NCBI GenBank assembly: GCA_014686905.1
Contig: GCA_014686905.1_4093.1
DNA from: a phage
DNA length: 64,000 nucleotides
Reading direction: 5' to 3' (one strand)
A program made the translations under genes and the position numbers. Under the pieces are notes generated by a model that was given only the letters and a program-made list of their open reading frames with translations, searched no databases and was not told the DNA's origin. Shown piece after piece: positions 1-60,064 of the stretch. Each line of letters opens with the position of its first letter. Position 1 is the first letter of the stretch.

Positions 1-200
<200 letters not shown>

Positions 201-2792: not shown

Positions 2793-3017
2793 AATCGTTT
2801 AACCCGATAGCTTCTAGTCAGTACTGATTCCTCCTTATGTATAGAAGCTATCACTTTTTTACGTATAATGATATTACCCTCAAATTCATTATATTCGTTA
2901 CCCTCTAACAGTATCTTTTTATTCCTCTTGGATGCTGTAATTTAGAAGTTGACTTTTTAACTTCTACTGTGTTATACTTAAGGCTGATTCGATGAATCGG
3001 CCTTTTTTCTTATATAG

Positions 3018-10774: not shown

Positions 10775-11196
10775 GAGGCTATAATAAGATTTGTATTTTT
10801 GTATTTTTAGTTTGTGCATTCAATTCGTTTGGTTACTACTGTACAGAAAATAATATTTCATATGGTTTAAATCCTTTGTGGTTTACAATTTCTAATGTAG
10901 CACAAATTGGTATTGCTCTTATGTCTGCACTTATGTTCTGTTCAATTGTCACAATGGATACTGATCATGAAAGGCTTGTATTTCTCCGTGATACTGGAGA
11001 CGAACCTTACAGTAGATTAATTGTGTTGTATCCATTTATTGTTATTTTAGGTACTAACATCCAACTTGGGTCATTATCTAATAGTGTTACATCAGCAGCT
11101 ATTGCTATATTTGCATTCACATTTTTTATGGTACACAAATCAGTACTTAATTGGTATATCACAAAAATGGCAGAAGAAGGTACTAAAAATACTTGA
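10771..11196 (+). CDS. hypothetical membrane protein (141 aa)
   Basis: ORF with several hydrophobic segments. Confidence 0.55.
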   Translation: MRGYNKICIFVFLVCAFNSFGYYCTENNISYGLNPLWFTISNVAQIGIALMSALMFCSIVTMDTDHERLVFLRDTGDEPYSRLIVLYPFIVILGTNIQLGSLSNSVTSAAIAIFAFTFFMVHKSVLNWYITKMAEEGTKNT

Positions 11197-40090: not shown

Positions 40091-40162
40091 TGTATCCTCC
40101 AAATGTAAATCGTTATTATATTTAGGACAAAAAAATGCCAGTACAAGGCACTGGCATAAAAT

Positions 40163-41332: not shown

Positions 41333-41342
41333 AATTTTCTCC

Positions 41343-42522: not shown

Positions 42523-42603
42523 AATTCCTCCTTTATTCATTATACTATATTTAATACAAATAAGAAAGCCAGCACTCTGTACTGGCTTTTTGATATACAT
42601 ACT

Positions 42604-43791
42604 TCATATACCCAATTTAATTGGCTCATATTGAAATAGTGTAGGATTGGAGTCAGGGTAGTTCACCACTTCTGTTCCTGGATATGCACCATACCCGTTG
42701 AATGCACCTGAACCATATACTATACCATCGGTGCTAATTAATGCAGAATAATTGTTTCCCATACCAACTGACAGTACTGTCATTGTTGATGTACCTTCTG
42801 GTAGGTTTATAACCTGCTCTCTGAAACTATTACCAGAAGCTGTTGGAACACTAAATCCTAATCTGCCATTGCTACTATTAGTAGAGCCAGTTGCATAACG
42901 TGTACCTGTACTCAAATCCTGAATCCAACACGATGGTCCTTGACCCTCTGGATCAGTCCAGTATCTAAAATTAGCACTATCGTATGTAAAGGGAAGAACT
43001 GCTAATCTGTTAGTTCCCTGGGAACCTGAAGTATACGTCAATCCATACAATGAAGTAAGCAAACCACGAACATATAATCCAGTACTCTTGGTGTATAACA
43101 ATGAGCCTCCTGAACCATCTGAATTGATTGAAAGGATATCAGTATCACCTATATTTGTGAATACCTTAATATCAGATGACCCCGATGTTAATCCATAATT
43201 ACCACAGAACCAAGCTGTGTTATCGTTCTTTAACACAACAACTGTTTCATAAGAACAGGTTACCACATCTTTACAGTTAGTATTGATTTGTACAAATTCA
43301 CCAATCTTCCCAGTTAGGGTATTATTACCAAACTGTCCACGGTTATTTGAACCCATAGCATATAATATTCCAGTACTATTCAATGCGTATATTGTACTAG
43401 TTCCTGGTGTTTCACGGCGTGTAATTGCAATCTTTGTAATAGTTCCTAATGTGCTGAAAAATGAACTCACATCAACGAAACTTGTTTGTGAACCTAATCC
43501 AAATTGACTTAAATTCCCCGCCGCCATATATCTTCCATCATTCATTAGACATATAGTATATGCTGGATGACAGTATATCATAGCTACATTTATAAGAACT
43601 AAGCTAGGCACTCCACCAACAATCGAAGTGGTTGGTGTACCAAAACGATACTCATTGTTTGACCCATATGCAAATAACTTACCATCAGTAGTTAAAAATA
43701 AATGCCCTAATCCATAAGTATTAATCTTGCGGATACCAGCGGGTGGTGGTATCTTATTCCCGTACTTTAACATTCTCCCAAAAGGTAACAT
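42604..43791 (-). CDS. RCC1-like repeat protein, paralog 4
   Basis: MLPFGRMLKYGNK leader; AMGSNNRGQFGNN, AYGSNNEYRFG repeats. Confidence 0.75.
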   Translation of the reverse strand: MLPFGRMLKYGNKIPPPAGIRKINTYGLGHLFLTTDGKLFAYGSNNEYRFGTPTTSIVGGVPSLVLINVAMIYCHPAYTICLMNDGRYMAAGNLSQFGLGSQTSFVDVSSFFSTLGTITKIAITRRETPGTSTIYALNSTGILYAMGSNNRGQFGNNTLTGKIGEFVQINTNCKDVVTCSYETVVVLKNDNTAWFCGNYGLTSGSSDIKVFTNIGDTDILSINSDGSGGSLLYTKSTGLYVRGLLTSLYGLTYTSGSQGTNRLAVLPFTYDSANFRYWTDPEGQGPSCWIQDLSTGTRYATGSTNSSNGRLGFSVPTASGNSFREQVINLPEGTSTMTVLSVGMGNNYSALISTDGIVYGSGAFNGYGAYPGTEVVNYPDSNPTLFQYEPIKLGI

Positions 43792-43799
43792 ATTCCCTC

Positions 43800-44975
43800 C
43801 TATTCCGGTAAAATCATTTTCTTCATTTTAACTTGTTGTGTACCTGCACTCTGTTCCTGGAACATAGAACCACTACCACACCAGTAAACCTCATTTGTCC
43901 CCACTAATGCGTATAACACACCGGAACCCCCCTGCTCTGCAAAAGCATTAACATCAAGTGCAGTATCTGAATCCTCAAATAGTACTGGATAGTACGCCGT
44001 TCTAGGTGTCGATGCAGTGATTTCTCTACCAAGAGCAACACCATTACCACATGTATACAATTTACCACCCTGTGTCATCGCAATCATATGAGAATTAATA
44101 CAAGAATTATTCAGTGATGCCGCATCTGGTACAATACCATAAATTGGAGGTGTAGCACTAAATGGACTCATTATTATACTGGTATCTCCATAACCAATAC
44201 CTAACGTATAATCGGTATTCGTCCCAGCACTATACACTCTAATAGTACCATTATATGATGTCAGTACTGAAGTCGCATTTGTAGTACATGCAATCCCTAG
44301 TACGGTTCCTGTGATATCTGTACTTACCGTAAATGTAGATAAAACAGAAGAGCTTGTTCCTAGGTTGTAGCGAGCATTACTCCCACATCTGTAGTACTGA
44401 CCATTTTTCACATAATGTAACGCCGCCGCACGGTCTGTGCCAGCAATTAAAGTAACACCTGTGTCAATCTTAAGTGCAGTTGATTGGATTCCAGAAACGC
44501 CTAATACACCACCACCATTACGACCTATACCATATAAGTCCCCGTTGCTTAACAAAATTAATATAGCACCATTGGAAATTGTAGTCTCAGTATAAGCTAT
44601 GTTTTGTATAGTACTAAGTGCAGGTATTGAGGATAAATTAGATGTAATATTAGTCCATCCAGGTACGCTCGCTGCAACTACACCAACATAACCCAATTGT
44701 CCAGCTAAGTATAATTCACCACTTGTAGTAAGTATAATAGTCGCGTAAGTTAAGCACCAAACATCAGCAACGCTATATTGGCACTTAACCCAACCATTCT
44801 GTACGAATCCAGTACTGTCATTTCCTAACTTATACTCACCACCATTCCCACGTAGATATAAATTTCCATTATCGAATAACATCCCAACGTGACTAATGGA
44901 AGTACTAATTTTCTTCACACCAGCACGTTTGGGTATAGTATTCCCGTACTTTACCATTCTTCCAAAAGGTAACAT
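43800..44975 (-). CDS. RCC1-like repeat protein, paralog 5
   Basis: MLPFGRMVKYGNT leader; YGIGRNGGGVLGVSG repeats. Confidence 0.75.
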   Translation of the reverse strand: MLPFGRMVKYGNTIPKRAGVKKISTSISHVGMLFDNGNLYLRGNGGEYKLGNDSTGFVQNGWVKCQYSVADVWCLTYATIILTTSGELYLAGQLGYVGVVAASVPGWTNITSNLSSIPALSTIQNIAYTETTISNGAILILLSNGDLYGIGRNGGGVLGVSGIQSTALKIDTGVTLIAGTDRAAALHYVKNGQYYRCGSNARYNLGTSSSVLSTFTVSTDITGTVLGIACTTNATSVLTSYNGTIRVYSAGTNTDYTLGIGYGDTSIIMSPFSATPPIYGIVPDAASLNNSCINSHMIAMTQGGKLYTCGNGVALGREITASTPRTAYYPVLFEDSDTALDVNAFAEQGGSGVLYALVGTNEVYWCGSGSMFQEQSAGTQQVKMKKMILPE

Positions 44976-45045
44976 ACTTCCCTCCTTTATTCATTATACT
45001 ATATTTAATCAAAAAGAAAAGCCAGTACTCTGTACTGGCATAATT

Positions 45046-46188
45046 TCAATAAACATCCCAAGGTAATGGTGTCTTCCTAAATCCATACCTGGTTGTGGTT
45101 GCACCATCACCAGCAATGTATCTACCGATGCCACATTGGTATAACTCCGTACTACTACATATAGCACCACCAATAGTACCACTACTCCACTGAATTATAT
45201 TAGAATATGTTATTGGCAAATCACTACATTTAGTATATACACCAACGGTAGCAGCACCACTAATACCACCAAACATACTTCGGTTAGCACCAGTATAATA
45301 TATACCATCTGGACTCATAAATGCAGAGGTGTAAGTTGTACTACAATCCACTGGACTTCTTATAGTATTAAGATCGCCTGGGTATGTTCTAGCAGCATAT
45401 ACGTAAACATTACCATCAGTAGTAATACCATTGCCCAACTGACCACTGTTCTGACCACCACACGTAACTAACGATGCAGAACCAGAAACAATTGCAGTAG
45501 CATTATACGAAGTACCCATTGCAATAGAAGCACCAGACAATAGTTTTGGGGTAACGATAGCTGTTGTATTACCCTGGCCTAATTCACCATTTGTGTTTCG
45601 TCCCCATGCGTATATAGAAGTCGTATCCAATCGACATAGTACTGAACCATAACTAAACGTATATCGCATGTCATTTACAGCAGAAGGCAAATTAACCTTA
45701 GTTGCAACACTAATAACACCACCAGTAACACCACTGTTTGCGTTCATGTTACGACCATATGCATATAAAGAACCATCTGAAGTTTTAATATGCATCATAC
45801 CATCTGTGCAATATAATGCATCGATGCTATCCACCGCAACCGGACCCATACTGGCAGTTATATCGGTCCACCCAAGAGTAGTAGTACTAGAAATTAAGTT
45901 ATTTCCTGCGTAAAGGATTCTATTATTATTAGTAACTACCACTGTATATCTAGCAGTAACTCCAATTAATCGAACATCAGTATATATCTTAGACCACGCA
46001 CCTAGTGAATTGGTATTTGCATCCAAAAAGCCTAACTGCCCATCTGTATTGTATCCAATACCCCATGCATCACCTGCACTGTCCAATAACACTTCATGTG
46101 AAAAGCCAATCTTAAAATCTTTTATTGTAGGAACTACTGGAACTGGTGCAATATTCCCGTACTTAACCATTCTTGCAAAAGGTAACAT
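45046..46188 (-). CDS. RCC1-like repeat protein, paralog 6
   Basis: MLPFARMVKYGNI leader; WGIGYNTDGQLGF, YAWGRNTNGELGQGN, CGGQNSGQLGNG. Confidence 0.8.
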   Translation of the reverse strand: MLPFARMVKYGNIAPVPVVPTIKDFKIGFSHEVLLDSAGDAWGIGYNTDGQLGFLDANTNSLGAWSKIYTDVRLIGVTARYTVVVTNNNRILYAGNNLISSTTTLGWTDITASMGPVAVDSIDALYCTDGMMHIKTSDGSLYAYGRNMNANSGVTGGVISVATKVNLPSAVNDMRYTFSYGSVLCRLDTTSIYAWGRNTNGELGQGNTTAIVTPKLLSGASIAMGTSYNATAIVSGSASLVTCGGQNSGQLGNGITTDGNVYVYAARTYPGDLNTIRSPVDCSTTYTSAFMSPDGIYYTGANRSMFGGISGAATVGVYTKCSDLPITYSNIIQWSSGTIGGAICSSTELYQCGIGRYIAGDGATTTRYGFRKTPLPWDVY

Positions 46189-46194
46189 AATTCC

Positions 46195-46253
46195 CCTCCT
46201 TATTCATTATACTATATTTAATACAAATAAGAAAGCCAGTATCAAGTACTGGC
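46195..46253 (-). promoter_or_regulatory. representative module: upstream terminator hairpin + -35-less promoter + SD
   Basis: On - strand: GCCAGTACTTGATACTGGC hairpin, T-rich, TTAAATATAGTATAATGAATAAGGAGG, then ATG; repeated before most paralogs. Confidence 0.5.
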
Positions 46254-46260
46254 CTATATT

Positions 46261-46929
46261 TTAGACTGAATTGTTAGGATAATATCTCCCACGTCCCCAT
46301 ATTATTCGCACAGCACCACCACTACCAGCACCACCATTATATGAACCATCGTATCTACCGCCAATACCATTAGCACCTTGAACAATGATACCAGTACCAC
46401 CACCCGTACCAATGAACGAGGTATTATAGAATGCACCACCACCACCGCCGCCGCCAGCACCATTTTCACCAGTGATTGCATCTCCGTTACCACCTTTACC
46501 AGTGTAGCCACCAGCACCACCACCAATGACTGCACCACCACTTACACCAGCGTTGCCCCCATTACCACCACCATCATTAATAGCGTTAGCAGCTTTCCCA
46601 CCTAGTCCACCAACCCTATATTCACCAGTGAAGCTAACACATAGTTTTTCAGTTCCACGATATAAACCGTTTTCAACTGCTGTAGTAGTGTTGGGATGTG
46701 TAAGAGAAACACTTAAGTACTCACCACTAGTAACCGGAATATTATTACGCCACGATAAGCCGCCACCAGCACCACGTTGACCACCCGGCGAAATAACACA
46801 TACTGATATTTCGGTAACGCCAGCAGGAACTGTAAATTGTGTTGTTCCTATTGTCGTGATTAATTGTTCACCATCTGGCTTATATTCAATTTTATTCCCG
46901 TACTTTACCATTCTTCCAAAAGGTAACAT
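46261..46929 (-). CDS. Gly-rich protein sharing the MLPFGRM leader (paralog 7, divergent body)
   Basis: MLPFGRMVKYGNK leader, then Gly-rich low-complexity body (GGNGGNAGVSGGAVIGGGAGG...). Confidence 0.7.
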   Translation of the reverse strand: MLPFGRMVKYGNKIEYKPDGEQLITTIGTTQFTVPAGVTEISVCVISPGGQRGAGGGLSWRNNIPVTSGEYLSVSLTHPNTTTAVENGLYRGTEKLCVSFTGEYRVGGLGGKAANAINDGGGNGGNAGVSGGAVIGGGAGGYTGKGGNGDAITGENGAGGGGGGGAFYNTSFIGTGGGTGIIVQGANGIGGRYDGSYNGGAGSGGAVRIIWGRGRYYPNNSV

Positions 46930-47000
46930 ACTTCCTCCTTTATTCATTATACTATATTTAATACAAATAAGAAAGCCAGTACTTTGTACTGGCGAAATTA

Positions 47001-48191
47001 TTACAATTGTCTAGGTGTATCCAGAACATATCTATTTGTACTAGGTCCACCATCATCATACGTTCCGGTTGAATATATATTTTTCATATCAGCAGTTAGA
47101 AAAGTACGATACGAACCGCGATATATTTTTATTTTATCATACATAGAATATGATATTTCTGCTGGCATTGGACATATAGTAAATCTACCAATAGTAACAT
47201 TAGAACCAACACCTAATGTACCAGCATAACCACTCGCATTTAAACCAGTTGCATATACACCTGTACTCGTAACTAGTATACTAGATTGTGCTGCATATCC
47301 AGTATGGATTGAATAATAAGTTCCTGATGGTAATGTAGTACTATTATTCCCTAATACTGCTAGTGCTGTACTATTCGTAGTGTTATTACCCCATGCCCCA
47401 TTATTAGCGTTACCACCTACTAGGAACTGACGTGCTCCTGTACTTGGATTCTCTACTAAAGCACTGACAGCACCAATTGAACAACCAGTATATTGTAATG
47501 TTTTTGTATATGTGGTACTTGGCTTATACAAAGTATATTCATTAAATGGTGTCCATGTGGTACTAGTACTTATGCCAGATGTACTACCACCAATATATAA
47601 ATTATTTTGTGTATCAAAAAACATTACACAGTAATTTGTTGACTGTATTTGTGCAATATCTACATCTGGTGTTACCGCTTTAACAAATGAACCATCTGAT
47701 ATTTGATAAGTAGTTCCTGTACCATCTGCGAATTGTCTAGCACTATTCCACCCTGTACTCCATATTGTATTATTATCCATTAAGAAAGTAAACCACGTAG
47801 TACCTGCATACATCTGTTTAATTGAAGTACTTGAACTTTGTGTGTACAAATTTTCAATATATTGGTTATAACTTAAAAATGATGTAGTACTAGTTTCTAA
47901 ACCAATATGACTACCATATCCACAATAAAAATAATTTAAGTCCTTATCTTGAACTAACAAAGTTCCTTGTGTCATCCAGCAATCTTTGACATTTTCTCTA
48001 ATTAATGTCCACGACCTTACTGCATTATTATTTCCTCTACCAAACTTCCCAAAACTATTACTGCCTCGTGCGTATAGTTGACCATCAGTATAAAGTACAA
48101 CAACATCAGTATCAGTTGGTATTATTTTCTTAATTTGTAGTGGTACAGGCACAATATTCCCATAATTCATCATTCTTGCAAAAGGTAACAT
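47001..48191 (-). CDS. RCC1-like repeat protein, paralog 8
   Basis: MLPFARMMNYGNI leader; YARGSNSFGKFGRGNNN. Confidence 0.75.
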   Translation of the reverse strand: MLPFARMMNYGNIVPVPLQIKKIIPTDTDVVVLYTDGQLYARGSNSFGKFGRGNNNAVRSWTLIRENVKDCWMTQGTLLVQDKDLNYFYCGYGSHIGLETSTTSFLSYNQYIENLYTQSSSTSIKQMYAGTTWFTFLMDNNTIWSTGWNSARQFADGTGTTYQISDGSFVKAVTPDVDIAQIQSTNYCVMFFDTQNNLYIGGSTSGISTSTTWTPFNEYTLYKPSTTYTKTLQYTGCSIGAVSALVENPSTGARQFLVGGNANNGAWGNNTTNSTALAVLGNNSTTLPSGTYYSIHTGYAAQSSILVTSTGVYATGLNASGYAGTLGVGSNVTIGRFTICPMPAEISYSMYDKIKIYRGSYRTFLTADMKNIYSTGTYDDGGPSTNRYVLDTPRQL

Positions 48192-48244
48192 AATTCCCTC
48201 CTTTATTCATTATACTATATTTAATACAAATAAGAATGCCAGTA

Positions 48245-49432
48245 TCAAGTACTGGCATTGATTGTTGGAAGTGGGAACTCTTTCATGACAGATGAACTAC
48301 TTGCTGAAATATTATCAGGGGATTTCCCCGCGTAGTATAATTTATTATTAATGTACATATACAACGTTGCATCGTTCCCAGCTACAAGTGATTCACTTTT
48401 CTTAAAATTAACACCATCAGGTAAAATTGCTTCAACAAATGAACCAGAATTAATTGTACTGTTATTTGCCAATTGACCATTGTTATTATAACCAGTACTA
48501 TAAATTTTACCAGAGCTATAATATACCAGGCCACGGGATGAGATGTTTTCAATTCGAATGAATTCACTATCATCTGGAACGGTTTTCGATAACGTTGGCG
48601 TTAATTTATAACCCCCTGCTGTAGTATTATTACCCAACTGACCATCAGCTTGATAGCCCATTGTATACATAGGACATGATTCTGGTGTACCTTTAGTTAT
48701 AATACCAATATAACTCGCACTACAAAAAACGTCTATAGCTTCGGTAACAGGTGTGCCCTTATATTGAACCCAAGGAAATATATATGTGTTTTGAACTCCA
48801 TTTCCCAACGTTCCATGAGATGTTGTCCCAGTACGCCATATTGTATTATCTAGTTTAATAATCCAGTTAGAGGGTGTGATGGATGAACAGAATTTTTTAA
48901 CATTATCGACTAAAAATGTAAATTTATTAAAATATGATGCAGTGTTTAAACCAAACTTTGAATTTTTATTATCACCTAACAAATATAAACTATTATCAGT
49001 ACCTAAAATCAAAGCATAATCAAGACCTACATATATCTCTTTGATTTTTGAAATACCAAATTGTGTAAAATAACTCGTACATTCAGTGAATGTTGTTACA
49101 GTATTTGTTGTATTATTACCTAGCCATTTATCTAAACCACTATAAAAGAATCTATCATCATTTGTTCGTATTAGACAAAACCCATTCCCTGTACTGCACC
49201 AAAAATCTTTAACATTGCTATATATTTTTGTCCATTCAGTAACCTGTGTAGTATTCCCTAACCCAAAAATTCCACCATTCTGAAGACCCATAGCCCACAC
49301 TGATCCATTTACATCCAGCAGCATTGTGCATGTAAATGAATAACCAACTGCTGGGGTGACTAATTTAGTAAAATTGGGAACATATGGAATGACTTTATTC
49401 CCGTACTTAACCATTCTTGTAAAAGGTAACAT
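48245..49432 (-). CDS. RCC1-like repeat protein, paralog 9
   Basis: MLPFTRMVKYGNK leader (track ORF extends upstream through promoter); MGYQADGQLGNN, YSTGYNNNGQLANN. Confidence 0.75.
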   Translation of the reverse strand: MLPFTRMVKYGNKVIPYVPNFTKLVTPAVGYSFTCTMLLDVNGSVWAMGLQNGGIFGLGNTTQVTEWTKIYSNVKDFWCSTGNGFCLIRTNDDRFFYSGLDKWLGNNTTNTVTTFTECTSYFTQFGISKIKEIYVGLDYALILGTDNSLYLLGDNKNSKFGLNTASYFNKFTFLVDNVKKFCSSITPSNWIIKLDNTIWRTGTTSHGTLGNGVQNTYIFPWVQYKGTPVTEAIDVFCSASYIGIITKGTPESCPMYTMGYQADGQLGNNTTAGGYKLTPTLSKTVPDDSEFIRIENISSRGLVYYSSGKIYSTGYNNNGQLANNSTINSGSFVEAILPDGVNFKKSESLVAGNDATLYMYINNKLYYAGKSPDNISASSSSVMKEFPLPTINAST

Positions 49433-49502
49433 AATTCCTCCTTTATTCATTATACTATATTTAATCAAAAAATAAAAACCAGTATCAAGTACTGGCTTTA
49501 AT

Positions 49503-50651
49503 TCATTGTATAAATGACATATCAACTTCGGTATATCTTGTAGTGTACTGCCCAGAACTTCCACCCATTACTAGATTGGAAAAACCAGTATAAAATAACT
49601 TCCCTTCATCTGTGAGAATCAAACTACCGATGTTATTCAGTACTAAACTGTAAGAACTATTAAAATTTTCATAAGACTTGGTATAATAGAACTGATTTGT
49701 AAGATTACCAACACCCAATTGCCCACCAGTGTTAACCCCAGATGCAAATATTGTAGTCCCAAATCTGAGAATATGTGAAGCCATATTACCAACACAACAG
49801 TATATATTCTGTACATCCGAATTCAATAAAGTTGGTGTTGTGTATTGCTTAAGTGTTGTGCCTGTGCCGAATTCATTACCATATGATACTCCATATTGTG
49901 TACCACAAGCGTACAATTTATTATCATCTTTAATAAAAAATGTACTCTGATAACTTACATCGACATCTATAACATTAGTCTGTATTCTAACAACACCAGT
50001 ACTAGCAGTTTGATTGCCTGTCCCTAACTGATAGTAAGTGTTAATACCACAACCCCATAATGTATTATCTTCTTTTAGGTATATGTTACCAACAGCTTTT
50101 TTTACCGATGATATGGCTTCAATCTTAACAAAGGCGTTAAATGAATTTGTATTTGTGCCATTACCAAAAGATGATCTGGTTGATGTGCTGTTTGTTCCGC
50201 AGCAATATAAAGTACCATCAGTTGTTATCAAATTCACTTTAAGATCACTGTAACTACTCATGTATTTTATATCAGAAACATTAATACCACTGGATGTTAT
50301 CCATGAAGTACAATCTGTCCACGTGTTATAATATGCACCTGAACCAGAAAACGCACTCGGACTTCCAGTTATAAACACTTTTCCAGTACCGTCTTCTTCA
50401 TATAATTGACAACCACTACTGTTATTTTCCAAAAGGACTCTTTTAACATTAGTCGCACTAAGAATAAATTTACTCGACGCTACACCAGTTCCAGTACCCT
50501 GACTGACTGCCGCTGATGCATACAAATTTTTCGTGTATGTATCATGAAAATACATAGCACTACCGCCGGAATATATTTTAAAACGTGTACTAGGATCAGG
50601 CGGGTTAGGTGCAATATTTCCGTACTTAATCATTCTTCCAAAAGGTAACAT
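49503..50651 (-). CDS. RCC1-like repeat protein, paralog 10
   Basis: MLPFGRMIKYGNI leader; WGCGINTYYQLGTGNQ, FASGVNTGGQLGVGN. Confidence 0.8.
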   Translation of the reverse strand: MLPFGRMIKYGNIAPNPPDPSTRFKIYSGGSAMYFHDTYTKNLYASAAVSQGTGTGVASSKFILSATNVKRVLLENNSSGCQLYEEDGTGKVFITGSPSAFSGSGAYYNTWTDCTSWITSSGINVSDIKYMSSYSDLKVNLITTDGTLYCCGTNSTSTRSSFGNGTNTNSFNAFVKIEAISSVKKAVGNIYLKEDNTLWGCGINTYYQLGTGNQTASTGVVRIQTNVIDVDVSYQSTFFIKDDNKLYACGTQYGVSYGNEFGTGTTLKQYTTPTLLNSDVQNIYCCVGNMASHILRFGTTIFASGVNTGGQLGVGNLTNQFYYTKSYENFNSSYSLVLNNIGSLILTDEGKLFYTGFSNLVMGGSSGQYTTRYTEVDMSFIQ

Positions 50652-50722
50652 ATTTCCCTCCTTTATTCATTATAGTATATTTAATACAAATAAGAATGCC
50701 AGTATCAAGCACTGGCATTATG

Positions 50723-51832
50723 TTATTTTGGTAAATCAATTTTAGTAAAGACTGCAACATCCTCGATTGCACCTGGAATGGCGTAATACGATCCAGTACT
50801 ATACACATCTCCATTTTTGGTTAATATCGATGTCAAACCATCACTAAAAAGAACATCTCTAATCTCACTAACTTCAACGGGTAATTGTAAATTGGTAGCA
50901 CTATATATAGCACCAGTTTGAGAATTGTTTAATCCCAAACCACGGTTCGCCCCAACACCCTTCTGATATGTACTAGTAATTACCATTTGTGTAGCAGTAT
51001 TTAATGCAGGTGAATTCGTCATAAACAACGGAGAACTATTAGGCAAAGTACTTACAGGAACTGCACGGAATGTAGTCGTACCTGAACTAAGAAAGTTTGG
51101 AGTTTGACCACATACGAAATATGATGTACCATTATAGTAATTTAATGCATTACCACCAATGGCTGCATCGATTACACCAGAACTACGCAATCCCCAAGTG
51201 TTAATTTGTGTTTGGTTCCCCGTACCATGCTGCCCACTACTATTCCATCCAGAACTATATAGCTTATTATCTAATGTAAGATACATACTATCATTCGCAT
51301 TGGTCATTACTTTACGAACGTTCGTAGCACATTGAGTTAATGTATAAATTGATGATGAACCAATACCCAAAGAACCACGATATCCATTATCTCCTGCACC
51401 ATAGAGTACTGAATTAGTGCTAAGTACAAATATTAAACCATTTGTACATACAATATTAGCAATTTCACTTACTGGTATAGCATTGGTAAACCAATTAGTC
51501 CTTTCAACTAATACAGTACTGTAAGAAGTAGTCGTAGAAGATGAGAACCAGTACGTTTGACCTGATGTCCATATAGTATTATCATTTTTAATAATAACAA
51601 GTGTACGATCACCCACGAAAAAATTAGAAACATCTGCACTTACTAATATCCATGAAGATACCGTGTTGGTATTACCATTTCCAGATTCACCACCTTGATT
51701 TCTACCTATGTAATATAAATCATGTGAATCAGTCAATAAGAATTGACCTTGTGTAGAAGCACCAACTTTAATTATATTTTTAGGACCAGGTACAATATTT
51801 CCGTACTTAACCATTCTTCCAAAAGGTAACAT
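50723..51832 (-). CDS. RCC1-like repeat protein, paralog 11
   Basis: MLPFGRMVKYGNI leader; LYSSGWNSSGQHGTGNQ, YGAGDNGYRGSLGIG. Confidence 0.75.
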   Translation of the reverse strand: MLPFGRMVKYGNIVPGPKNIIKVGASTQGQFLLTDSHDLYYIGRNQGGESGNGNTNTVSSWILVSADVSNFFVGDRTLVIIKNDNTIWTSGQTYWFSSSTTTSYSTVLVERTNWFTNAIPVSEIANIVCTNGLIFVLSTNSVLYGAGDNGYRGSLGIGSSSIYTLTQCATNVRKVMTNANDSMYLTLDNKLYSSGWNSSGQHGTGNQTQINTWGLRSSGVIDAAIGGNALNYYNGTSYFVCGQTPNFLSSGTTTFRAVPVSTLPNSSPLFMTNSPALNTATQMVITSTYQKGVGANRGLGLNNSQTGAIYSATNLQLPVEVSEIRDVLFSDGLTSILTKNGDVYSTGSYYAIPGAIEDVAVFTKIDLPK

Positions 51833-51905
51833 AAATCCCTCCTTATTCATTATACTATATTTAATACAAAAAAGAAAAGCCAGCATCAAGTACTGGCATA
51901 TCAAA

Positions 51906-53054
51906 TCACTGCAAAAATGACATATCGACTTCGGTATAATTAAGAACGTTCTGTCCAGCAATACCTCCCATTACTACAATTGAAGCCCCACAATAATATA
52001 ACTTCGAAGTGTCAGTAAGTATAAGTGAACCAGATGGGGTGCGTACCAAATTACACGAAGTATTAAACGAAGTATATGAAGGGGTATAAGAGTACTGATT
52101 AATATTATTACCAACACCTAATTGACCAGACGAGTTGCTTCCAGATGCATAAAGTACTTCATCACCTTTAACTATATGTGACGCCATGTTACCAACACAA
52201 GTATATAAACTATAAACTCCTGAACTCAATAATGTTGGAGTTTTGTATTGTATATCTGTAGATGAAGAAGTACCACCTGTGCCAAATTCGTTCCCGTATT
52301 GTGCACCGAACTGTTTACCACATGCGTACAAATTATTATCTGATTTAATAAAAAATGTACTCTGATAACTTACATCAAAATCTATAACATCCGAAGCAAT
52401 CATCGTCACCCCAGTAATAGAAGTTTGATTACCTGTACCTAACTGATAGTAATAGTTAAAACCACAACCCCATAAAGTATTATCTTCTTTTAGGTATATG
52501 TTACCAACTGCCTTTTTAACCGAAGTTATAGTATCTACCCTTTTGAATGTGTTAAAAGAATTAATGTTTGTACCATCACCAAATGATGATAGGTTAGAGT
52601 TATTGTTAGCTCCACAACAATACAATGTACCATCGTTTGTTATCAAATTTACCTTCATATCATTAAAACTACTCATGTATTTTATATCAGAAACATTAAT
52701 ACCACCTGATGTTATCCACGTAGTACATTCCGTCCACAAAGTTTTTCTATCAGTTACACCAGTGAATGCCTTCGTGTTACCAGTGATAAAAACTTTTCCA
52801 GTACCTTTCTCTTCATACAATTGACAATCACTACTGTTATTTTCCAATAGAACTCGTTTAACATTCTCCGCACTAAGAATAAATTTACTCGACGAAACAC
52901 CTGTTCCAGTACCCCAATTCGTCGCAGAAGATGCATACAACTTATCAGTATAAGTATCATGAAGATACATGGAATCACTGGAATATATTTTAAAACGTCC
53001 ATCATCACCAGGGGCAATATTCCCGTACTTAATCATTCTAACAAAAGGTAACAT
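51906..53054 (-). CDS. RCC1-like repeat protein, paralog 12 (close duplicate of paralog 10)
   Basis: MLPFVRMIKYGNI leader; long blocks near-identical to 49503..50651. Confidence 0.8.
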   Translation of the reverse strand: MLPFVRMIKYGNIAPGDDGRFKIYSSDSMYLHDTYTDKLYASSATNWGTGTGVSSSKFILSAENVKRVLLENNSSDCQLYEEKGTGKVFITGNTKAFTGVTDRKTLWTECTTWITSGGINVSDIKYMSSFNDMKVNLITNDGTLYCCGANNNSNLSSFGDGTNINSFNTFKRVDTITSVKKAVGNIYLKEDNTLWGCGFNYYYQLGTGNQTSITGVTMIASDVIDFDVSYQSTFFIKSDNNLYACGKQFGAQYGNEFGTGGTSSSTDIQYKTPTLLSSGVYSLYTCVGNMASHIVKGDEVLYASGSNSSGQLGVGNNINQYSYTPSYTSFNTSCNLVRTPSGSLILTDTSKLYYCGASIVVMGGIAGQNVLNYTEVDMSFLQ

Positions 53055-53102
53055 ATTTCCCTCCTTATTCATTATATCATATTTACCCCATAAAGAAAAC
53101 CC

Positions 53103-53131
53103 TTGACATCCTTTCAGTACTGGTGTACTAT
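53103..53131 (+). promoter_or_regulatory. sigma70-like promoter TTGACA-N17-TACTAT for small-ORF array
   Basis: TTGACA 53103-53108, TACTAT 53126-53131, SD AAGGAG before ATG 53157; divergent from RCC1 array. Confidence 0.5.
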
Positions 53132-53156
53132 AGAAGGAATATAAGGAGAACTACAC

Positions 53157-53384
53157 ATGACAAATACTCTTAAGCACTACCTCAATACTCTAAATGAACT
53201 AGAGTACGGGGAATTTCTCGCGGATAGTTCGTGGCTAATTGAGCTAAAAAATTATAATAGTCCAGGATGCACCCTTATGATGAACAATGCAATTGATACC
53301 CTCATTGTGAGTATTTTACACAGCAACATCTGCGGGGATAGCAATAAACAATTATCAAAAATCTTAGTACTGCTATCTATATGA
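53157..53384 (+). CDS. small-ORF array member 1 (75 aa)
   Basis: First ORF of head-to-tail array; hydrophobic C-terminus ILVLLSI. Confidence 0.5.
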   Translation: MTNTLKHYLNTLNELEYGEFLADSSWLIELKNYNSPGCTLMMNNAIDTLIVSILHSNICGDSNKQLSKILVLLSI

Positions 53385-53584
53385 ACATTGAACAGTACTA
53401 CATCGATGCACTACCAACAAAAGGTCTACGAGAAAGCCTACTGTATACACAAAATACTTTTATACACTACAAACGTTGTCCTAAACTCCTGAACTCGTAC
53501 AGGAGTAATATCATAAGAAATGCTTTACAAGGGGCAGAAAGTATGCAATACTATTATATCCTTGCCCTTTTAATCGAGTACTAA
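53381..53584 (+). CDS. small-ORF array member (67 aa)
   Basis: MNIEQYYIDALP...ILALLIEY; start overlaps upstream stop. Confidence 0.55.
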   Translation: MNIEQYYIDALPTKGLRESLLYTQNTFIHYKRCPKLLNSYRSNIIRNALQGAESMQYYYILALLIEY

Positions 53585-53585
53585 T

Positions 53586-53795
53586 ATGAATACTGAACAT
53601 AAAGAATTCTACACCAAATACCTTAGCAACGAAGAACAATTGTTTCTAAGGAGTGTATCACCTGTAAGTACCAATACTCACTTCGGTAGAGATTGCTTTA
53701 ATAATTGTATACGTAGTACTCTAGAAGCAATCGAATGCAATAACAAAAATATTATGTACTCAGGTTTAATAGGACTAATCTACTTCTATGAATAA
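53586..53795 (+). CDS. small-ORF array member (69 aa)
   Basis: MNTEHKEFYTKYLS...IGLIYFYE. Confidence 0.55.
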   Translation: MNTEHKEFYTKYLSNEEQLFLRSVSPVSTNTHFGRDCFNNCIRSTLEAIECNNKNIMYSGLIGLIYFYE

Positions 53796-53982
53796 TCATA
53801 AAGATTTCTATGGTAGTAAACTACACAAGCAAGACCAGCTATCATTCTCTTTAGCACCACCTATGAGAAAGGATAATCTATATTACAATTACGATTTCAG
53901 GATGGCGACACGTTATGCAATAGAACATCAGTTCCCTGAAACTAAGTACCGCTCTATCCTGAACCTCATCTTTAAGTTCTAA
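53788..53982 (+). CDS. small-ORF array member (64 aa)
   Basis: MNNHKDFYGSKL...LNLIFKF. Confidence 0.55.
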   Translation: MNNHKDFYGSKLHKQDQLSFSLAPPMRKDNLYYNYDFRMATRYAIEHQFPETKYRSILNLIFKF

Positions 53983-54034
53983 AAGGTGCAACAGGAACCG
54001 AGTACTTTAATATAGTAAGGCTAATTACATTATA

Positions 54035-55457: not shown

Positions 55458-55637
55458 ATGCACAAACATAAAGAATTCTACCTCTCGTACCTTAATTCCG
55501 ATATAGTAACATCCAATACCTTCAGTACTAAAATTATCTATAATGAATTAATAAAAGAATGTATTAAAGGTGCTATTAACCCTAAAGATACGTATGACTT
55601 GTACTATGCAGTACTAACCCTTGTTTTCACGAAATAA
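55458..55637 (+). CDS. small-ORF array member (59 aa)
   Basis: MHKHKEFYLSYL...AVLTLVFTK; TAATATG junction. Confidence 0.5.
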   Translation: MHKHKEFYLSYLNSDIVTSNTFSTKIIYNELIKECIKGAINPKDTYDLYYAVLTLVFTK

Positions 55638-55645
55638 CACATAAT

Positions 55646-55837
55646 ATGAATAACCACAAAGAATACTACATAGAGAAACTCCCAATGTATCTCCAACACC
55701 TTGTACCAAACGTTGCATTGGGTATAGAAAAAAACTACGAAAAAGACTACTTCATTCAGTGCACTAAATCCTCGATATATATTGACGACTATAATCGAGT
55801 ACTGTATCACATCCTTTTACTAATATATAGGTACTAA
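55646..55837 (+). CDS. small-ORF array member (63 aa)
   Basis: MNNHKEYYIEKLPMYLQHLVP...ILLLIYRY. Confidence 0.6.
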   Translation: MNNHKEYYIEKLPMYLQHLVPNVALGIEKNYEKDYFIQCTKSSIYIDDYNRVLYHILLLIYRY

Positions 55838-55838
55838 T

Positions 55839-56021
55839 ATGCACAAAGAATACTACACACAATTTCTCCCCAGCATTTTTGAACACTACGCCAGATATAA
55901 AGTCCCTCTGGATAACGATTTGGCAGTACTGGGATTCAATAACTGCATAGAACGAAGTATAGAAAATAGTAGTAGTTATGACCAGCTATATAACACTATC
56001 CTACTTATATTCAGGTACTAA
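55839..56021 (+). CDS. small-ORF array member (60 aa)
   Basis: MHKEYYTQFLP...ILLIFRY; TAATATG junction. Confidence 0.6.
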   Translation: MHKEYYTQFLPSIFEHYARYKVPLDNDLAVLGFNNCIERSIENSSSYDQLYNTILLIFRY

Positions 56022-56022
56022 C

Positions 56023-56211
56023 ATGCATAAAGAATACTACACAAAATATTTCCCAATGTACCTCAGAACTAATCTATTAGATAAACCTCGCGGTATCAAT
56101 GCACAAAATGATAAAGTGTATTTTACTATGTGCACTAAAGCATGTATACTAGATTTTGACAGCTACCATCGAGTACTGTATCATACCCTGTACCTAGCTT
56201 TCGTATTCTAA
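56023..56211 (+). CDS. small-ORF array member (62 aa)
   Basis: MHKEYYTKYFPMYL...LYLAFVF. Confidence 0.55.
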   Translation: MHKEYYTKYFPMYLRTNLLDKPRGINAQNDKVYFTMCTKACILDFDSYHRVLYHTLYLAFVF

Positions 56212-56220
56212 GAGAACAAT

Positions 56221-56406
56221 ATGCATAAAGAATTCTACTTAAGCCACCTCGATCTAAACTCCCAAATGCTTATACCACAAATCCCAATAGATATCAAGGA
56301 TAAGAAAAATACCGAACAATTCATTTACCATACACAGTGTGCGATCACCCCAAATTACATTCCATATGAATTGTACTACATTCTCGCCCTAATATATAGG
56401 TACTAA
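56221..56406 (+). CDS. small-ORF array member (61 aa)
   Basis: MHKEFYLSHL...ILALIYRY. Confidence 0.6.
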   Translation: MHKEFYLSHLDLNSQMLIPQIPIDIKDKKNTEQFIYHTQCAITPNYIPYELYYILALIYRY

Positions 56407-56407
56407 T

Positions 56408-56593
56408 ATGCATAGAGAATACTACACACAATTTGTTAAAGGGAACTACAAACATGCCGTACCCAGAACCCCTTTAAATTTTCATGACCCAAGTACTATA
56501 TTCTTGTTTAATGACGCAATACGTACAGTACTCAATACTAAAGATGAAGATGTGCAGTACGTATTCTTACTATTACTTATATACAGACACTAA
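56408..56593 (+). CDS. small-ORF array member (61 aa)
   Basis: MHREYYTQFV...LLLLIYRH. Confidence 0.6.
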   Translation: MHREYYTQFVKGNYKHAVPRTPLNFHDPSTIFLFNDAIRTVLNTKDEDVQYVFLLLLIYRH

Positions 56594-56598
56594 CTAAT

Positions 56599-56808
56599 AT
56601 GAATAAAGAACATAAAGAATTCTACTCCAAATACATAAGCCCCTCAGAACAAATGTTTCTAAGGACTACACCACCTTTAAGTACTAATACATATTTCGGC
56701 AGAGTATGCTACAATAATTGTATTCAAATGACTTTAAACGCAAACGAAGATGATAACAGTACTAACCTGTACTCAGGTATCATAGGTATACTATTCCTGT
56801 ATGAATAA
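56599..56808 (+). CDS. small-ORF array member (69 aa)
   Basis: MNKEHKEFYSKYIS...IGILFLYE (close to 53586 member). Confidence 0.6.
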   Translation: MNKEHKEFYSKYISPSEQMFLRTTPPLSTNTYFGRVCYNNCIQMTLNANEDDNSTNLYSGIIGILFLYE

Positions 56809-56989
56809 TTACAAAGACTTCTATTTGAATACACTACCTACTGTACTTTCTCTAAGTGCTCAATGTAAAATCCCGCTGGATAATGCTTACGCCAGATATA
56901 GCTATTCCATAACTGTTAATCGATGTATAGAGAATCATTGCAGTACTAACCAGTACTATAACATAATCCTACTTATATTCAGGTACTAA
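56801..56989 (+). CDS. small-ORF array member (62 aa)
   Basis: MNNYKDFYLNTLP...IILLIFRY. Confidence 0.6.
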   Translation: MNNYKDFYLNTLPTVLSLSAQCKIPLDNAYARYSYSITVNRCIENHCSTNQYYNIILLIFRY

Positions 56990-56990
56990 T

Positions 56991-57173
56991 ATGAATAAAG
57001 AACATAAAGAATTCTATATACGAAAACTAACATTCGTCCCCGTAAGAATATATAAAGAATGCGACCCAAGATTATACCTATGGCACTTCAATGAGTGCAT
57101 AAAAGATTCTATATACCCTAAGAACTACAAAGAACAATTGTGCTCAGTACTAACACTAGTACTATCATATTAA
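56991..57173 (+). CDS. small-ORF array member (60 aa)
   Basis: MNKEHKEFYIRKL...VLTLVLSY. Confidence 0.55.
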   Translation: MNKEHKEFYIRKLTFVPVRIYKECDPRLYLWHFNECIKDSIYPKNYKEQLCSVLTLVLSY

Positions 57174-57188
57174 TTAATAGAGAATACT

Positions 57189-57380
57189 ATGTATAAAAAC
57201 TTCTATATAAGTAAACTAAAAGAAAATGAACAAGTATGGATTAGATCTATAATTCCACTGGCATTTAATAGATATGCATTTAACAGATGTACCGAGATTG
57301 CTATAGACCCTTATAATATTAAAGAGAATGTACAGTATAATCAGTACTACTATATCTTAATGCTTATATATAGGAAGTAA
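57189..57380 (+). CDS. small-ORF array member (63 aa), last unit
   Basis: MYKNFYISKL...YILMLIYRK. Confidence 0.55.
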   Translation: MYKNFYISKLKENEQVWIRSIIPLAFNRYAFNRCTEIAIDPYNIKENVQYNQYYYILMLIYRK

Positions 57381-58429
57381 TTAAACACAAGTAGACAGGG
57401 GAAGCTCCTAGTGAACAACCTTTATGTACAGGCGAATTGTTAAAATTCAGCCTGGACAAATGCGATCACTAGGATTCTCCCCAGGCTAAACCCCGTAATC
57501 ATAGGTAGTCATAAGTAATCATATATAAACATTTATATGAGCACCGTAGAATCACAGAATGATTATATATGATTCAGTACTGATTAGTATAGACAAGAAT
57601 GCTCAAGAATGCACGGGAAGGATTCAGTACTGATATGCCACTAAGTAGGCAGAGGAAGTCTGCCGTACTTTTTAGTTTCCAAGCTCCTTTTCCATTTTTC
57701 AAATTACATCAAATGTAATCAAAAGTAATCACGCAATGATTAGTACTGAATTATTACTTTCACCTTAATTTCAATTACCCCTTTACCCTTCGGGGTAAAA
57801 TTCAATTACCCCTTGAGGCTCCAGCAAAAAGTTGGTTAGTACTCCATCCTAAATCTCGATCCTAAAAATTTTGGAGTACCTATGAAATAAAAGTTGGATC
57901 TTCGAAAGTTGAAATTTACGTTGGGACGTTTATGATTTGTGGGATATAATGATGTTTGTAGTCGGGTAGTTCTCAAGAATATCAGTACTGAATAATGAAA
58001 GAAAGCTATTGACATTATGATTCAGTACTGTATAATGTTCTACATAGAGAGATGAGTTGCTGCGAACAATTCATTTACTCTATCTCCTGTCGTGAGACAG
58101 TACAGAAAAGATAGTTCCTCCTGTGGTGGTACATCTTTTTGAACCTCATATGAAAATCGTAATAACAGTACTGATATTAACAGAATGGTGTCAGTACTGA
58201 TTTTAATCTAAAGCATTATGCCACCAGCTTGTGCTGGTGGATTCCCTCTAACAGTATTCAGTACTACATGATGGTCTTCATCCTCCTAGGGTAACATAGT
58301 GAGGGCTATGATGGCAGTACTGAATACTCCCTTTCAAAAGATAGATCTATGGTATAGTACTGACGGATTTTGGGTGTAGTTACCCTGGATGGATTTTGGG
58401 CGTAGATATGTCTAGCCCTCCAGAAGTCT

Positions 58430-58545
58430 GGAAGTAAAGATGGCTATCCATCTAGACGGCTAAACGGCTAGATGGCTGGATGGCTAGACGTTTGGACGGC
58501 TAAACGGCTAGATGGTTACACGTCTGGAAGTATAGACGGCTAAAT
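58430..58545. repeat. iteron-like short direct repeats
   Basis: GACGGCTAAACGGCTAGATGG twice plus partial third copy; GTCTGGAAGTA twice. Confidence 0.6.
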
Positions 58546-59158
58546 CAAAATTTTATTTTGTTTTTCCAATAGTTCCCCTACCGCGTGGGGATAGTTTCCC
58601 CGCAGTATCTGGCGTTAGATTTTTCTGAATCTGGAATCATTATCTTATAAACTGGGGGCAATGTCAACGACCTGGACGGATATTTTTAAAAATTTTTTCA
58701 GTACTGAATTTTGGGCGTAACTATGCACCCGGTGGGCTTGAGTCTTTCTCGACTTGATGGAACTATTATACAGTACTGGAAAAATAAAGCAATACCCTGG
58801 ATGAAAAAAGTTTTAATTAATTTGCTTGCCATCCTGGGCCGGACTATGGTACTATATTTCAGTACTGAGAAAGTGCGTTTACCTGCTAGGGTGCGGGAGT
58901 GTATCCTTTTTTTATATCTTGAATTTTGGACGGATCTTCCCACCCCCTGGGGTATCCGCTTTCTCGCGTCTATGTAGTAATTATACGCTTTTTCAGGATC
59001 AAGTCAATACCTAAAAACAAAATAATTGAAAATAATTTAACGCGTTTAAACGGCCCGTAACGCCCTGGAATGATTAGAATGGTGCAAATGTATAGCTTAG
59101 GTGTATTAATGCGTTAGAATGCGTCTGAGGCCGTTTTATGGGGTGTAGTAGTGATTTG

Positions 59159-59251
59159 GTTGATTCAGTACTGAATAATAGTACTCCTATATAGAAAGAT
59201 AGTTCCCCTGGATTGATTCAGTACTGAATAATAGTACTCCTATATAGAAAG
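59159..59251. repeat. ~38-bp direct repeat, two copies
   Basis: TTGATTCAGTACTGAATAATAGTACTCCTATATAGAAAGA twice, separated by ~15 bp. Confidence 0.7.
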
Positions 59252-59283
59252 AAAACTATTTTAAAAGTATTTGTAGAAAGTAC

Positions 59284-59343
59284 TTGCACCGTACTGATAA
59301 AAGCGTATAATGTTTTACATCGAGAGCGGGAACACTTCCCGCT
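59284..59343 (+). promoter_or_regulatory. PeSL-like cassette: promoter + 5' stem-loop
   Basis: TTGCAC-N16-TATAAT, GTTTTACAT, stem AGCGGGAA-CAC-TTCCCGCT. Confidence 0.6.
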
Positions 59344-59366
59344 ACACTTTAAGAGAGATTAATACG

Positions 59367-59729
59367 ATGGCAACTCAAATCACCAAAATTATTGCTAACC
59401 TGGTTAACTTCCGCGACGAGATGAAAGATCTTCCGGCGGCGACGGTTAAAACTCACATTGACGCATACCGCGAACTGATTAAAATGCTGCCGCTTAAGCG
59501 TGAACAATACGCCGCTACCGTGATGCTTGATGCGATGATCCATAAGATGATCGCCAGTGATTTGACGATGGTTTATCAGTATATGGGCGAAAATTTCGCG
59601 GTGTGTAGTAAGCCAGTACCAGGGATGGCAACAACTGAGGAATTGCACGGCTTAAACTTAAAACAAGATGCATGGGATAATATGCCTCGTTTCCTGGTAT
59701 GGGCTGACAGTGGCAAAATTTACAAATAA
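59367..59729 (+). CDS. hypothetical protein (~120 aa)
   Basis: Start MATQITKI after SD AGAGAGA; GC-richer codon usage. Confidence 0.6.
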   Translation: MATQITKIIANLVNFRDEMKDLPAATVKTHIDAYRELIKMLPLKREQYAATVMLDAMIHKMIASDLTMVYQYMGENFAVCSKPVPGMATTEELHGLNLKQDAWDNMPRFLVWADSGKIYK

Positions 59730-59824: not shown

Positions 59825-60064
59825 ATGGCTAAATCAAAAATGTTCTTAGGTCACAAAAACAAAACTCATTGGAATGTAAGCCTGTGGATTAATAACGATG
59901 AGGGATTGTATCGGTTGGCCCTGGACTTTATTGCCGCCAATACTAATCGCAATGATGCGGCCCGTCATATGATGTTATTTTTAGAACAGACTGGACAAGA
60001 TAAAACACCGGACGGATTCAAATATAGCACTACTGCGATCCGTGCGGCGATGGTTGGAATGTAA
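59825..60064 (+). CDS. hypothetical protein (79 aa)
   Basis: ORF, SD AGAGGA. Confidence 0.55.
   Translation: MAKSKMFLGHKNKTHWNVSLWINNDEGLYRLALDFIAANTNRNDAARHMMLFLEQTGQDKTPDGFKYSTTAIRAAMVGM

Follow-up and report, generated by a model that had tools for sequence, protein, structure and literature searches.

What binds a cluster of direct repeats that lies in gene-free DNA next to the end of a jumbo-phage genome, and what might the phage gain from it? We addressed this question for an array that has no second copy in the window, the term used here for the whole 64-kb stretch of phage DNA that was analyzed.

An array of 8-bp units in gene-free DNA

A first-pass annotation had placed the cluster at 58430-58545 and likened it to initiator-binding iterons. 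The repeats that it listed are all present, since GACGGCTAAACGGCTAGATGG occurs exactly twice (58455 and 58495, 40 bp apart), a third, partial copy at 58535 consists of its first 10 nt, and GTCTGGAAGTA occurs twice (58426 and 58522, 96 bp apart). Both are nevertheless composites of a shorter, 8-bp unit, of which the 21-mer GACGGCTAAACGGCTAGATGG represents 2.6 copies. The periodicity expected from a self-comparison is evident, since shifting 58422-58541 against itself by any multiple of 8 leaves a self-identity of 0.60-0.71, while 2000 shuffles gave 0.256 +/- 0.042 and a maximum of 0.41. Tandem Repeats Finder likewise reports a period of 8 with 11.4 copies of the unit CTAGACGG, together with super-periods of 32 and 40 bp. 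The array is thus real, but slightly larger than first described and built on a unit of 8 bp, not 21. As can be seen in Table 1, it comprises 15 head-to-tail units, which follow each other over 120 bp without any phase break, in the order AGAAGTCT GGAAGTAA AGATGGCT ATCCATCT AGACGGCT AAACGGCT AGATGGCT GGATGGCT (units 1-8) and AGACGTTT GGACGGCT AAACGGCT AGATGGTT ACACGTCT GGAAGTAT AGACGGCT (units 9-15). Twelve of the 15 units are distinct, and their consensus is AGAYGGCT, in a register shifted by 2 nt from the earlier reading; the near-palindrome in the array is formed by the unit ATCCATCT and the one preceding it. No ORF of at least 40 aa overlaps the array.

Table 1. Positions of the array and neighboring elements in the window, and of related arrays in other phages.
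Sequence	Feature	Position	Strand	Remark
Window	Physical genome end (left), where the ~21-kb direct terminal repeat (DTR) begins, then directly a terminator-like hairpin	57644..57664	+	Placed by homology
Window	Sigma-70 promoter, perfect consensus (TTGACA-16-TATAAT, 12/12), directed at the array	58009..58036	+	CAGTACTG in spacer
Window	Terminator-like hairpin, 14-bp stem from two CAGTACTG copies, then T-rich tail	58166..58199	+	
Window	Hairpin with arms equal to the E. coli Chi octamer in both orientations (CCACCAGC ttgt GCTGGTGG)	58221..58240	.	
Window	Two GGATTTTGGGYGTAG copies, 26 bp apart, directly upstream of the array	58365..58405	+	Related copies at 58706 and ~58920
Window	Array of 15 in-register head-to-tail 8-bp units	58422..58541	+	120 bp
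Window	A/T-rich tract directly after the array	58542..58565	+	~24-25 bp
Window	Motif TTTTCCAATAGTTCCCCTACCGCG, directly after the array	58562..58585	+	Conserved in four jumbo-phage genera
Window	Promoter-like site TTGCCA-18-TACTAT and, ~35 nt later, terminator-like hairpin (58888-58907)	58826..58915	+	TTGACA in other genera
Window	First ORF of the terminal repeat, 139 aa	59310..59729	+	No known domain; closes the gene-free leader
Asteriusvirus, several phages	Array, 8 to ~24 units			
XbC2 (jumbo, other genus)	Array, 2+4+8 boxes			One register
BF (jumbo, other genus)	Array, 2+4+4+3 boxes			One register
CBB (jumbo, other genus)	Array, 2+4+7 boxes			One register
Vibrio phage Pontus (Demerecviridae)	Array, 15 boxes			111.7 bits
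Providencia phage PR1 (Demerecviridae)	Array, 9 boxes	9620-9691		88.5 bits; in 10,461-bp terminal repeat
Aeromonas phage AhSzq-1 (Demerecviridae)	Array, 28 boxes			221 bits
Vibrio phage VF16 (Demerecviridae)	Array, 5 boxes	~400 bp from inner end of repeat		7,427-bp repeat defined by PhageTerm
Vibrio phage PVo5 (Demerecviridae)	Array, 8 boxes			
T5-like locus L011	DnaA boxes plus array	9511-9691		
T5-like locus L012	DnaA boxes plus array	10678-11023		
T5-like locus L006	DnaA boxes plus array	2841-3119		
T5-like locus L141	DnaA boxes plus array	6883-7029		
PGT2 (T7-like)	Array, 9 boxes	nt 38-109		Also a right-end copy
Klebsiella phage NNA-G4 (T7-like, Drulisvirus)	Array, 5 boxes	nt 1-40		In 255-bp repeat; right-end copy at 44313-44360
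Pseudoalteromonas phage PH1 (unclassified)	~350 bp of GGACGTCT-type units	2372-2713		One intergenic gap

The units fit the metbox of the host methionine repressor

The host protein known to bind contiguous 8-bp repeats is MetJ. This methionine repressor is a ribbon-helix-helix protein, one dimer of which occupies each 8-bp metbox (consensus AGACGTCT), and neighboring dimers, with S-adenosylmethionine (SAM) as corepressor, are cooperative only at an exact 8-bp spacing (see PMC3228920). The array consensus AGAYGGCT is identical to the metbox at seven of eight positions. For scoring, we used the published half-metbox matrix and thresholds (Augustus & Spicer 2011; PMC3228920), by which a box has at least one-quarter of the consensus score (3.1 bits) and a site has at least two contiguous boxes and a total no lower than the consensus (12.58 bits). 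Both by the scores of its boxes and by their contiguous 8-bp spacing and total, 58438-58541 qualifies as a run of 13 contiguous metboxes, which sum to 97.8 bits, with a mean of 7.5 bits per box and single boxes of 3.8-10.7 bits, and two further units stand in register upstream of 58438. Because the same script recovers the E. coli metJ/metB and metF operators (31.2 and 24.9 bits, four boxes each), the strength per box can be equated with that of real operators, in an array about three times longer. The rest of the 64-kb window contains only one 2-box site in the matrix scan, 50 shuffled windows gave at most 21 bits and three boxes, and the probability that a random tandem 8-mer unit reaches the mean score of the array in any register is 0.009.

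Unit frequencies pooled from eight phage lineages agree with the natural metbox matrix in one register only (r = 0.90), the other seven registers giving r = -0.28 to 0.03. Position 6 of the phage units is mostly T or G and never A, and T and G are also the commonest bases there in natural metboxes. However, G fills this position in 52% of the phage units vs 10% of natural metboxes, a consistent excess that could reflect a different binding protein instead of MetJ. The consensus in BF and PR1 is exactly the metbox consensus. As for conservation, 90% of single substitutions in the array lower the metbox score, and EJP2, the most divergent Asteriusvirus (69% identity), has kept 21 boxes. The 8-bp phase is exact over 8-28 units, split arrays stay in register, and the differences in array length between relatives are multiples of 8.

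With the MetJ operators of E. coli and other gammaproteobacteria, the array therefore shares a contiguous head-to-tail 8-bp unit, CT/AG-type junctions, base preferences and scores per box. Natural operators consist of 2-5 metboxes, and the phage arrays differ from them in length, with 13-15 boxes here and up to 28 in AhSzq-1 vs 4 in metB/J and metF. They differ also in setting, since the array is found in a gene-free phage leader and not, as natural operators are, at the promoter of a methionine or SAM gene. We consider it somewhat probable (roughly 0.55) that this feature is a giant operator-like array for host MetJ, on which a SAM-dependent MetJ filament would assemble in terminal-repeat DNA. 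A metbox operator, in form, of such unprecedented length appears to be new for the terminal repeats of virulent phages: full-text searches of the library used here returned nothing in which MetJ or metboxes are connected to the terminal repeats or host factors of phages, and the genome papers of CBB, fEgEco12 and XbC2 contain no description of the array.

The array lies close to a genome end and lacks the surroundings of iterons

By its 95-98% identity to the Asteriusvirus jumbo coliphages PBECO4, 121Q and G17, and to Escherichia and Salmonella phages in the same range, we assign the window to an Asteriusvirus jumbo coliphage. In alignments, base 1 of the terminus-starting records E9.1, ELP-22, CRJP21, fEgEco12 and BF17 coincides with window position 57644, and the annotated 21,525-bp DTR of vB_Ec-M-J starts at the equivalent point. 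Since the terminus-starting records place base 1 there, the array starts 778 bp inside the left DTR end, within a gene-free leader of 1.9 kb (57380-59310). A search of 57300-59400 against Rfam at E <= 1 yielded no RNA family. To our knowledge, the terminal biology of jumbo coliphages is essentially unstudied, and we know of no report of two-step injection in jumbo phages.

Directly before the terminal-repeat boundary, at least 10 paralogous ORFs of ~60 aa each (MHKEYY...LIYRY) stand in tandem at 55458-57380 on the + strand and further upstream. They lack Pfam matches, are annotated in G17 and 121Q as hypothetical proteins, and show a negative GC skew although they are on the + strand. On the other side of the leader, the ORF at 59825-60064 (79 aa) encodes a DUF7249 protein that shares 82% identity with gp3 of PGT2, a T7-like coliphage. 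This likeness suggests that early-region genes have recently passed between a jumbo myovirus and a podovirus, both of which carry the same type of array.

Iterons are typically 17-22 bp long, phased by helical turns, and adjoin an initiator gene, DnaA boxes and an A/T-rich unwinding element. Like those of plasmids and phages (lambda ori, P1, pSC101), the array is a cluster of direct repeats suited to loading many copies of one protein, and if it were the iteron set of a replication origin, bound by an initiator, one might expect both the short A/T-rich tract that follows it and the minimum of cumulative GC skew near 57-57.5 kb. None of the hallmarks of iterons is found at the array, however. 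The units are contiguous with a period of 8 bp and not 17-22 bp in helical phase, no initiator-like gene is present (neighboring ORFs have no significant Pfam match except DUF7249), 57380-59310 contains no consensus DnaA box, and the only A/T tract measures ~24-25 bp. The array is, moreover, 0.8 kb inside the physical genome end and not at a known origin, and the same arrays occur at the tips of T7-like genomes and in the injection-stop region of T5-like phages, which are not origins (Davison, 10.1101/866236). Without an initiator gene or DnaA box nearby, the iteron reading fails, and we rate it as very improbable: the idea of a direct-repeat array serving as a protein-binding platform survives, while a replication initiator as its ligand does not, the units fitting the MetJ matrix. 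GC skew is ambiguous as evidence of an origin because its sign change mainly tracks gene strand. This change, at ~57.5 kb, coincides with the terminal-repeat boundary and follows a block of minus-strand ORFs (40000-54000) in an otherwise plus-strand window, which makes the skew negative up to that point.

Arrays in the same register occur in unrelated phages

To find relatives of the array, we ran distant BLAST searches from three different arrays and then scanned the fetched loci with the matrix. In-phase arrays of 5-28 boxes in the same 8-bp register (Table 1) are found in four genera of jumbo phages, in Demerecviridae other than T5, in two T7-like genera and in Pseudoalteromonas phage PH1, which represents another lineage and another host order with MetJ. 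The genera include Asteriusvirus, Mimasvirus and Eneladusvirus among the jumbo phages and Ermolevavirus and Drulisvirus among the T7-like ones, and the Demerecviridae concerned are phages of Vibrio, Aeromonas and Providencia. In PH1, GGACGTCT recurs many times, mostly every 16 bp, in alternation with weaker metbox-like units.

In every group, the array lies in gene-free DNA, either downstream of promoters or between convergent units, with a terminal-repeat boundary 0-780 bp away. Jumbo phages have this boundary at 650-780 bp, PR1 has it at 770 bp and T7-likes have it at 0-37 bp. Alignment shows that the whole layout of the leader, array included, has been kept in XbC2, Serratia phage BF and Pectobacterium phage CBB, which belong to different genera and in which the array is 647-684 bp from base 1. 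In T7-likes, the array occupies the tip of the repeat, that is, the junction of late and early regions in the concatemer, and in NNA-G4 the array is divided, in phase, by the annotated boundary of the terminal repeat, leaving one unit outside the repeat at the right-end copy. In T5-likes, it sits between the convergent pre-early and early units, in the equivalent of the T5 injection-stop region, and in those of Providencia, Aeromonas and Vibrio (loci L011, L012, L006 and L141 in Table 1) perfect DnaA boxes (TGTGGATAA) are found 60-160 bp to its left, which would bring sites for two host proteins together in this region.

No metbox array was detected in T5, its terminal repeat included, which also rules out direct-repeat D of T5 as a possible homologue, nor in phiKMV, whose host is Pseudomonas. 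The left-end motif TTCCCCCGTAGGCCC is common to phiKMV and PGT2, and in PGT2 the array directly follows it. Since T5 and phiKMV do without the array, it is not a core packaging signal; neither does it resemble a terminase recognition site of the pac or cos type, being 778 bp from the terminus and absent from these two phages. The terminal repeat of T7 is flanked by the SRL and SRR arrays, short imperfect repeats with a unit of ~7 bp and irregular spacing. These, too, are next to or inside a direct terminal repeat, but their unit is unlike the metbox.

It is scarcely credible that such arrays are functionless minisatellites created by replication slippage. Copy number does differ among close relatives (8 to ~24 units), and unequal exchange can keep a tandem array homogeneous even where no selection acts. 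Bacterial genomes, too, commonly contain perfect 8-bp microsatellites of similar unit, at least among the matches listed in a scan with RRAYGKCT x4, where (GAACGGCT)n, (GAATGGCT)n and (GGACGGCT)n were seen in 4-16 copies, frequently in unrelated bacteria (Gemmatimonadales, Anaerolineae, Burkholderia, Streptomyces). The units of the phage array, however, are degenerate, as expected from its 12 distinct units, yet phase is never lost; array and flanks are conserved across genera with little other DNA similarity; the consensus converges on one 8-mer in unrelated phages; and BLAST of 5,426 complete E. coli genomes and 72,556 plasmids gave no match to the array.

A host protein is the simplest common factor

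MetJ homologues are confined to five orders (Enterobacterales, Pasteurellales, Vibrionales, Aeromonadales and Alteromonadales), and for the window the protein is available in the host, as E. coli K-12 encodes metJ. The BLAST matches of the three array queries are only in phages of Enterobacterales, Vibrionales, Aeromonadales and Alteromonadales, except for XbC2, which has an intact array and was isolated on Xanthomonas vesicatoria, from an order without MetJ. This exception is doubtful because the genome of XbC2 has 37.5% G+C vs ~65% in that host, and its relatives are enterobacterial phages. The correlation with hosts provides few independent contrasts, since Demerecviridae and Rak2-like jumbo phages infect only MetJ-bearing orders anyway.

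Phages do not seem to bring a MetJ of their own. When E. coli MetJ was searched with tblastn against 50,697 phage records, no credible homologue was found; the three matches, at 99% identity or more, look bacterial (two Salmonella enterica contigs with metJ annotated and one unannotated 1.4-kb record). Nor is any neighboring protein common to all array-bearing families, the only shared one being DUF7249, in the window and PGT2. With no neighboring gene common to the three phage groups, a host protein is the simplest common factor, and the similar arrays in unrelated phages suggest that these phages recruit host MetJ.

A protein encoded by the phages themselves, either a small ribbon-helix-helix protein or one associated with the terminase, would be the alternative. 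It would mark the terminal repeat for packaging, end processing or segregation, and the likeness to metboxes would be coincidental or convergent. Such a binder could explain why the arrays are always inside terminal repeats and near a boundary, why the repeat boundary of NNA-G4 is in phase with the units, why position 6 is G-rich, unlike in natural metboxes, and why XbC2 has kept its array on a reported host without MetJ. There are also precedents for it, as the omega heptads of pSM19035 and the ParR sites in parC of plasmid R1 are long runs of 7-11 bp repeats, with an occasional inverted unit, that are coated cooperatively by omega and ParR, which like MetJ are ribbon-helix-helix dimers acting on short-repeat arrays. 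In contrast to the present case, however, omega and ParR are encoded beside their own sites, and no such gene was found near the array. The packaging machinery of the three phage groups is unrelated, the groups share no neighboring protein, and T5 and phiKMV, close relatives of array-bearing phages with homologous terminases, have no array. The distance to the cut site, besides, ranges from 0 to ~780 bp, and in T5-likes the array is 9.6 kb from the left end. Finally, the same 8-bp specificity would have to arise, or be transferred along with the protein, in very different phages of MetJ-bearing hosts. We therefore regard a phage-encoded binder as less probable than MetJ, though still a serious rival.

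Possible roles of the array if MetJ coats it

If host MetJ is the ligand, an infected cell would contain a continuous SAM-dependent filament of ~13-15 MetJ dimers on each copy of the terminal repeat, hence two arrays per genome, each loaded cooperatively. As a tentative conjecture, we favor the view that on the DNA of the terminal repeat and the concatemer junction this filament would form a boundary element or protein barrier. RNA polymerase, or a different machine that tracks along DNA, would be stopped there on its way from the promoter 400 bp upstream or from across the junction. In this manner, the SAM status of the host would be coupled to an early step, either the transcription of the repeat or an entry of the genome in steps like that at the T5 injection-stop region. 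In a wider form that we regard as possible and equally tentative, unrelated virulent DTR phages (Rak2-like jumbo myoviruses, non-T5 Demerecviridae and some T7-like podoviruses) would each have acquired a MetJ super-operator whose filament acts as a barrier or checkpoint for genome entry, junction insulation or end processing. One common role related to the terminus is not obvious because the distance to the genome end varies by family, from 0 bp to 9.6 kb.

The main alternative role for a MetJ-bound array is that of a sink, in which replicating phage DNA would titrate the repressor, derepress the host methionine/SAM regulon and so supply methionine and SAM. The number of boxes, 13-28 per array vs 2-5 in natural operators, and the placement in a terminal repeat, which doubles the dose, would suit a sink, and SAM is a known target of phages, which by SAM lyases, for example, act on the MetJ regulon as well (PMC7877911). 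A sink, however, would have no need for a conserved place by the terminal-repeat boundary, beside DnaA boxes or in a gene-free leader. T5-like and T7-like phages, furthermore, shut off host expression and degrade host DNA early, so that they would gain little from derepressing the host, and we judge a sink unlikely.

For a barrier, the closest comparison is T5, whose left terminal repeat has untranslated repeat regions and a candidate injection-stop signal with DnaA boxes (Davison, bioRxiv 10.1101/866236). Both this region and the array are gene-free, dense in repeats, located in a long terminal repeat and composed of clustered sites, putative ones in the array, for a host DNA-binding protein, but the array lies 0.8 kb into its 21-kb repeat, counted from the left, whereas the T5 region is at the inner end of a 10-kb repeat. 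The paired DnaA boxes in inverted repeats that typify the T5 signal have no counterpart here, 57380-59310 being devoid of DnaA boxes, and metbox repeats and MetJ are not mentioned in the T5 study (10.1101/866236). In T5-like phages with an array, a MetJ filament may form part of the long-sought injection-stop signal, beside the DnaA boxes.

Should MetJ indeed coat these arrays, a core metabolic repressor would be a structural or regulatory DNA partner of at least three unrelated groups of lytic phages, and phage genome ends would be tied to the SAM level of the cell, a new way of reading the metabolic state of the host. In T5 relatives, the arrays would also supply a concrete candidate that can be tested as part of the undefined T5-type injection-stop region, and in jumbo coliphages they would open a first functional approach to the conserved leader, devoid of genes, in the ~20-kb terminal repeats. 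Should MetJ not bind, the arrays would still represent a conserved, phase-locked putative protein-binding element of phage termini.

Other elements of the leader

The consensus promoter nearest to the array (58009-58036) is ~370 bp from the genome end and ~400 bp upstream of the array, and alignment reveals a TTGAC..TAATAT-type counterpart at the equivalent place in XbC2, BF and CBB. A transcript starting from it would be a non-coding leader of at least 1.2 kb. The Chi hairpin at 58221-58240, ~580 bp from the genome end, is present in most Asteriusvirus relatives, is annotated as a terminator in G17 and could modulate RecBCD entering at the DNA end. Chi also occurs in both orientations (9865 and 10024) near the array of Providencia phage PR1. 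Immediately around the array, the element AATTTTGGGTGTA is also found upstream of it in BF and CBB, and the other jumbo genera have a T-rich tract at the place aligned with 58542-58565.

The palindrome CAGTACTG is found in 56 copies in the 64 kb vs 0.85 expected; half of these are intergenic, and they are dense at 57575-59226. Several are located in the spacer of consensus sigma-70 promoters (TTGACA-N8-9-CAGTACTG-TATAAT), while others form the arms of hairpins. The palindrome, which is similar, although not identical, to the core of the SlmA site, is probably recognized by a regulator of phage or host origin. Further downstream, 58826-58915 is possibly a small transcription unit or small RNA gene. 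Two paralogous modules, at 58703-58785 and 58918-58985, consist of GAATTTTGGRCG, a C-rich/G-rich hairpin, CTTTCTCG and TATTATAC, with no match in Rfam. The second of these is nearly unchanged in XbC2, BF and CBB, an unusually strong conservation for non-coding phage DNA.
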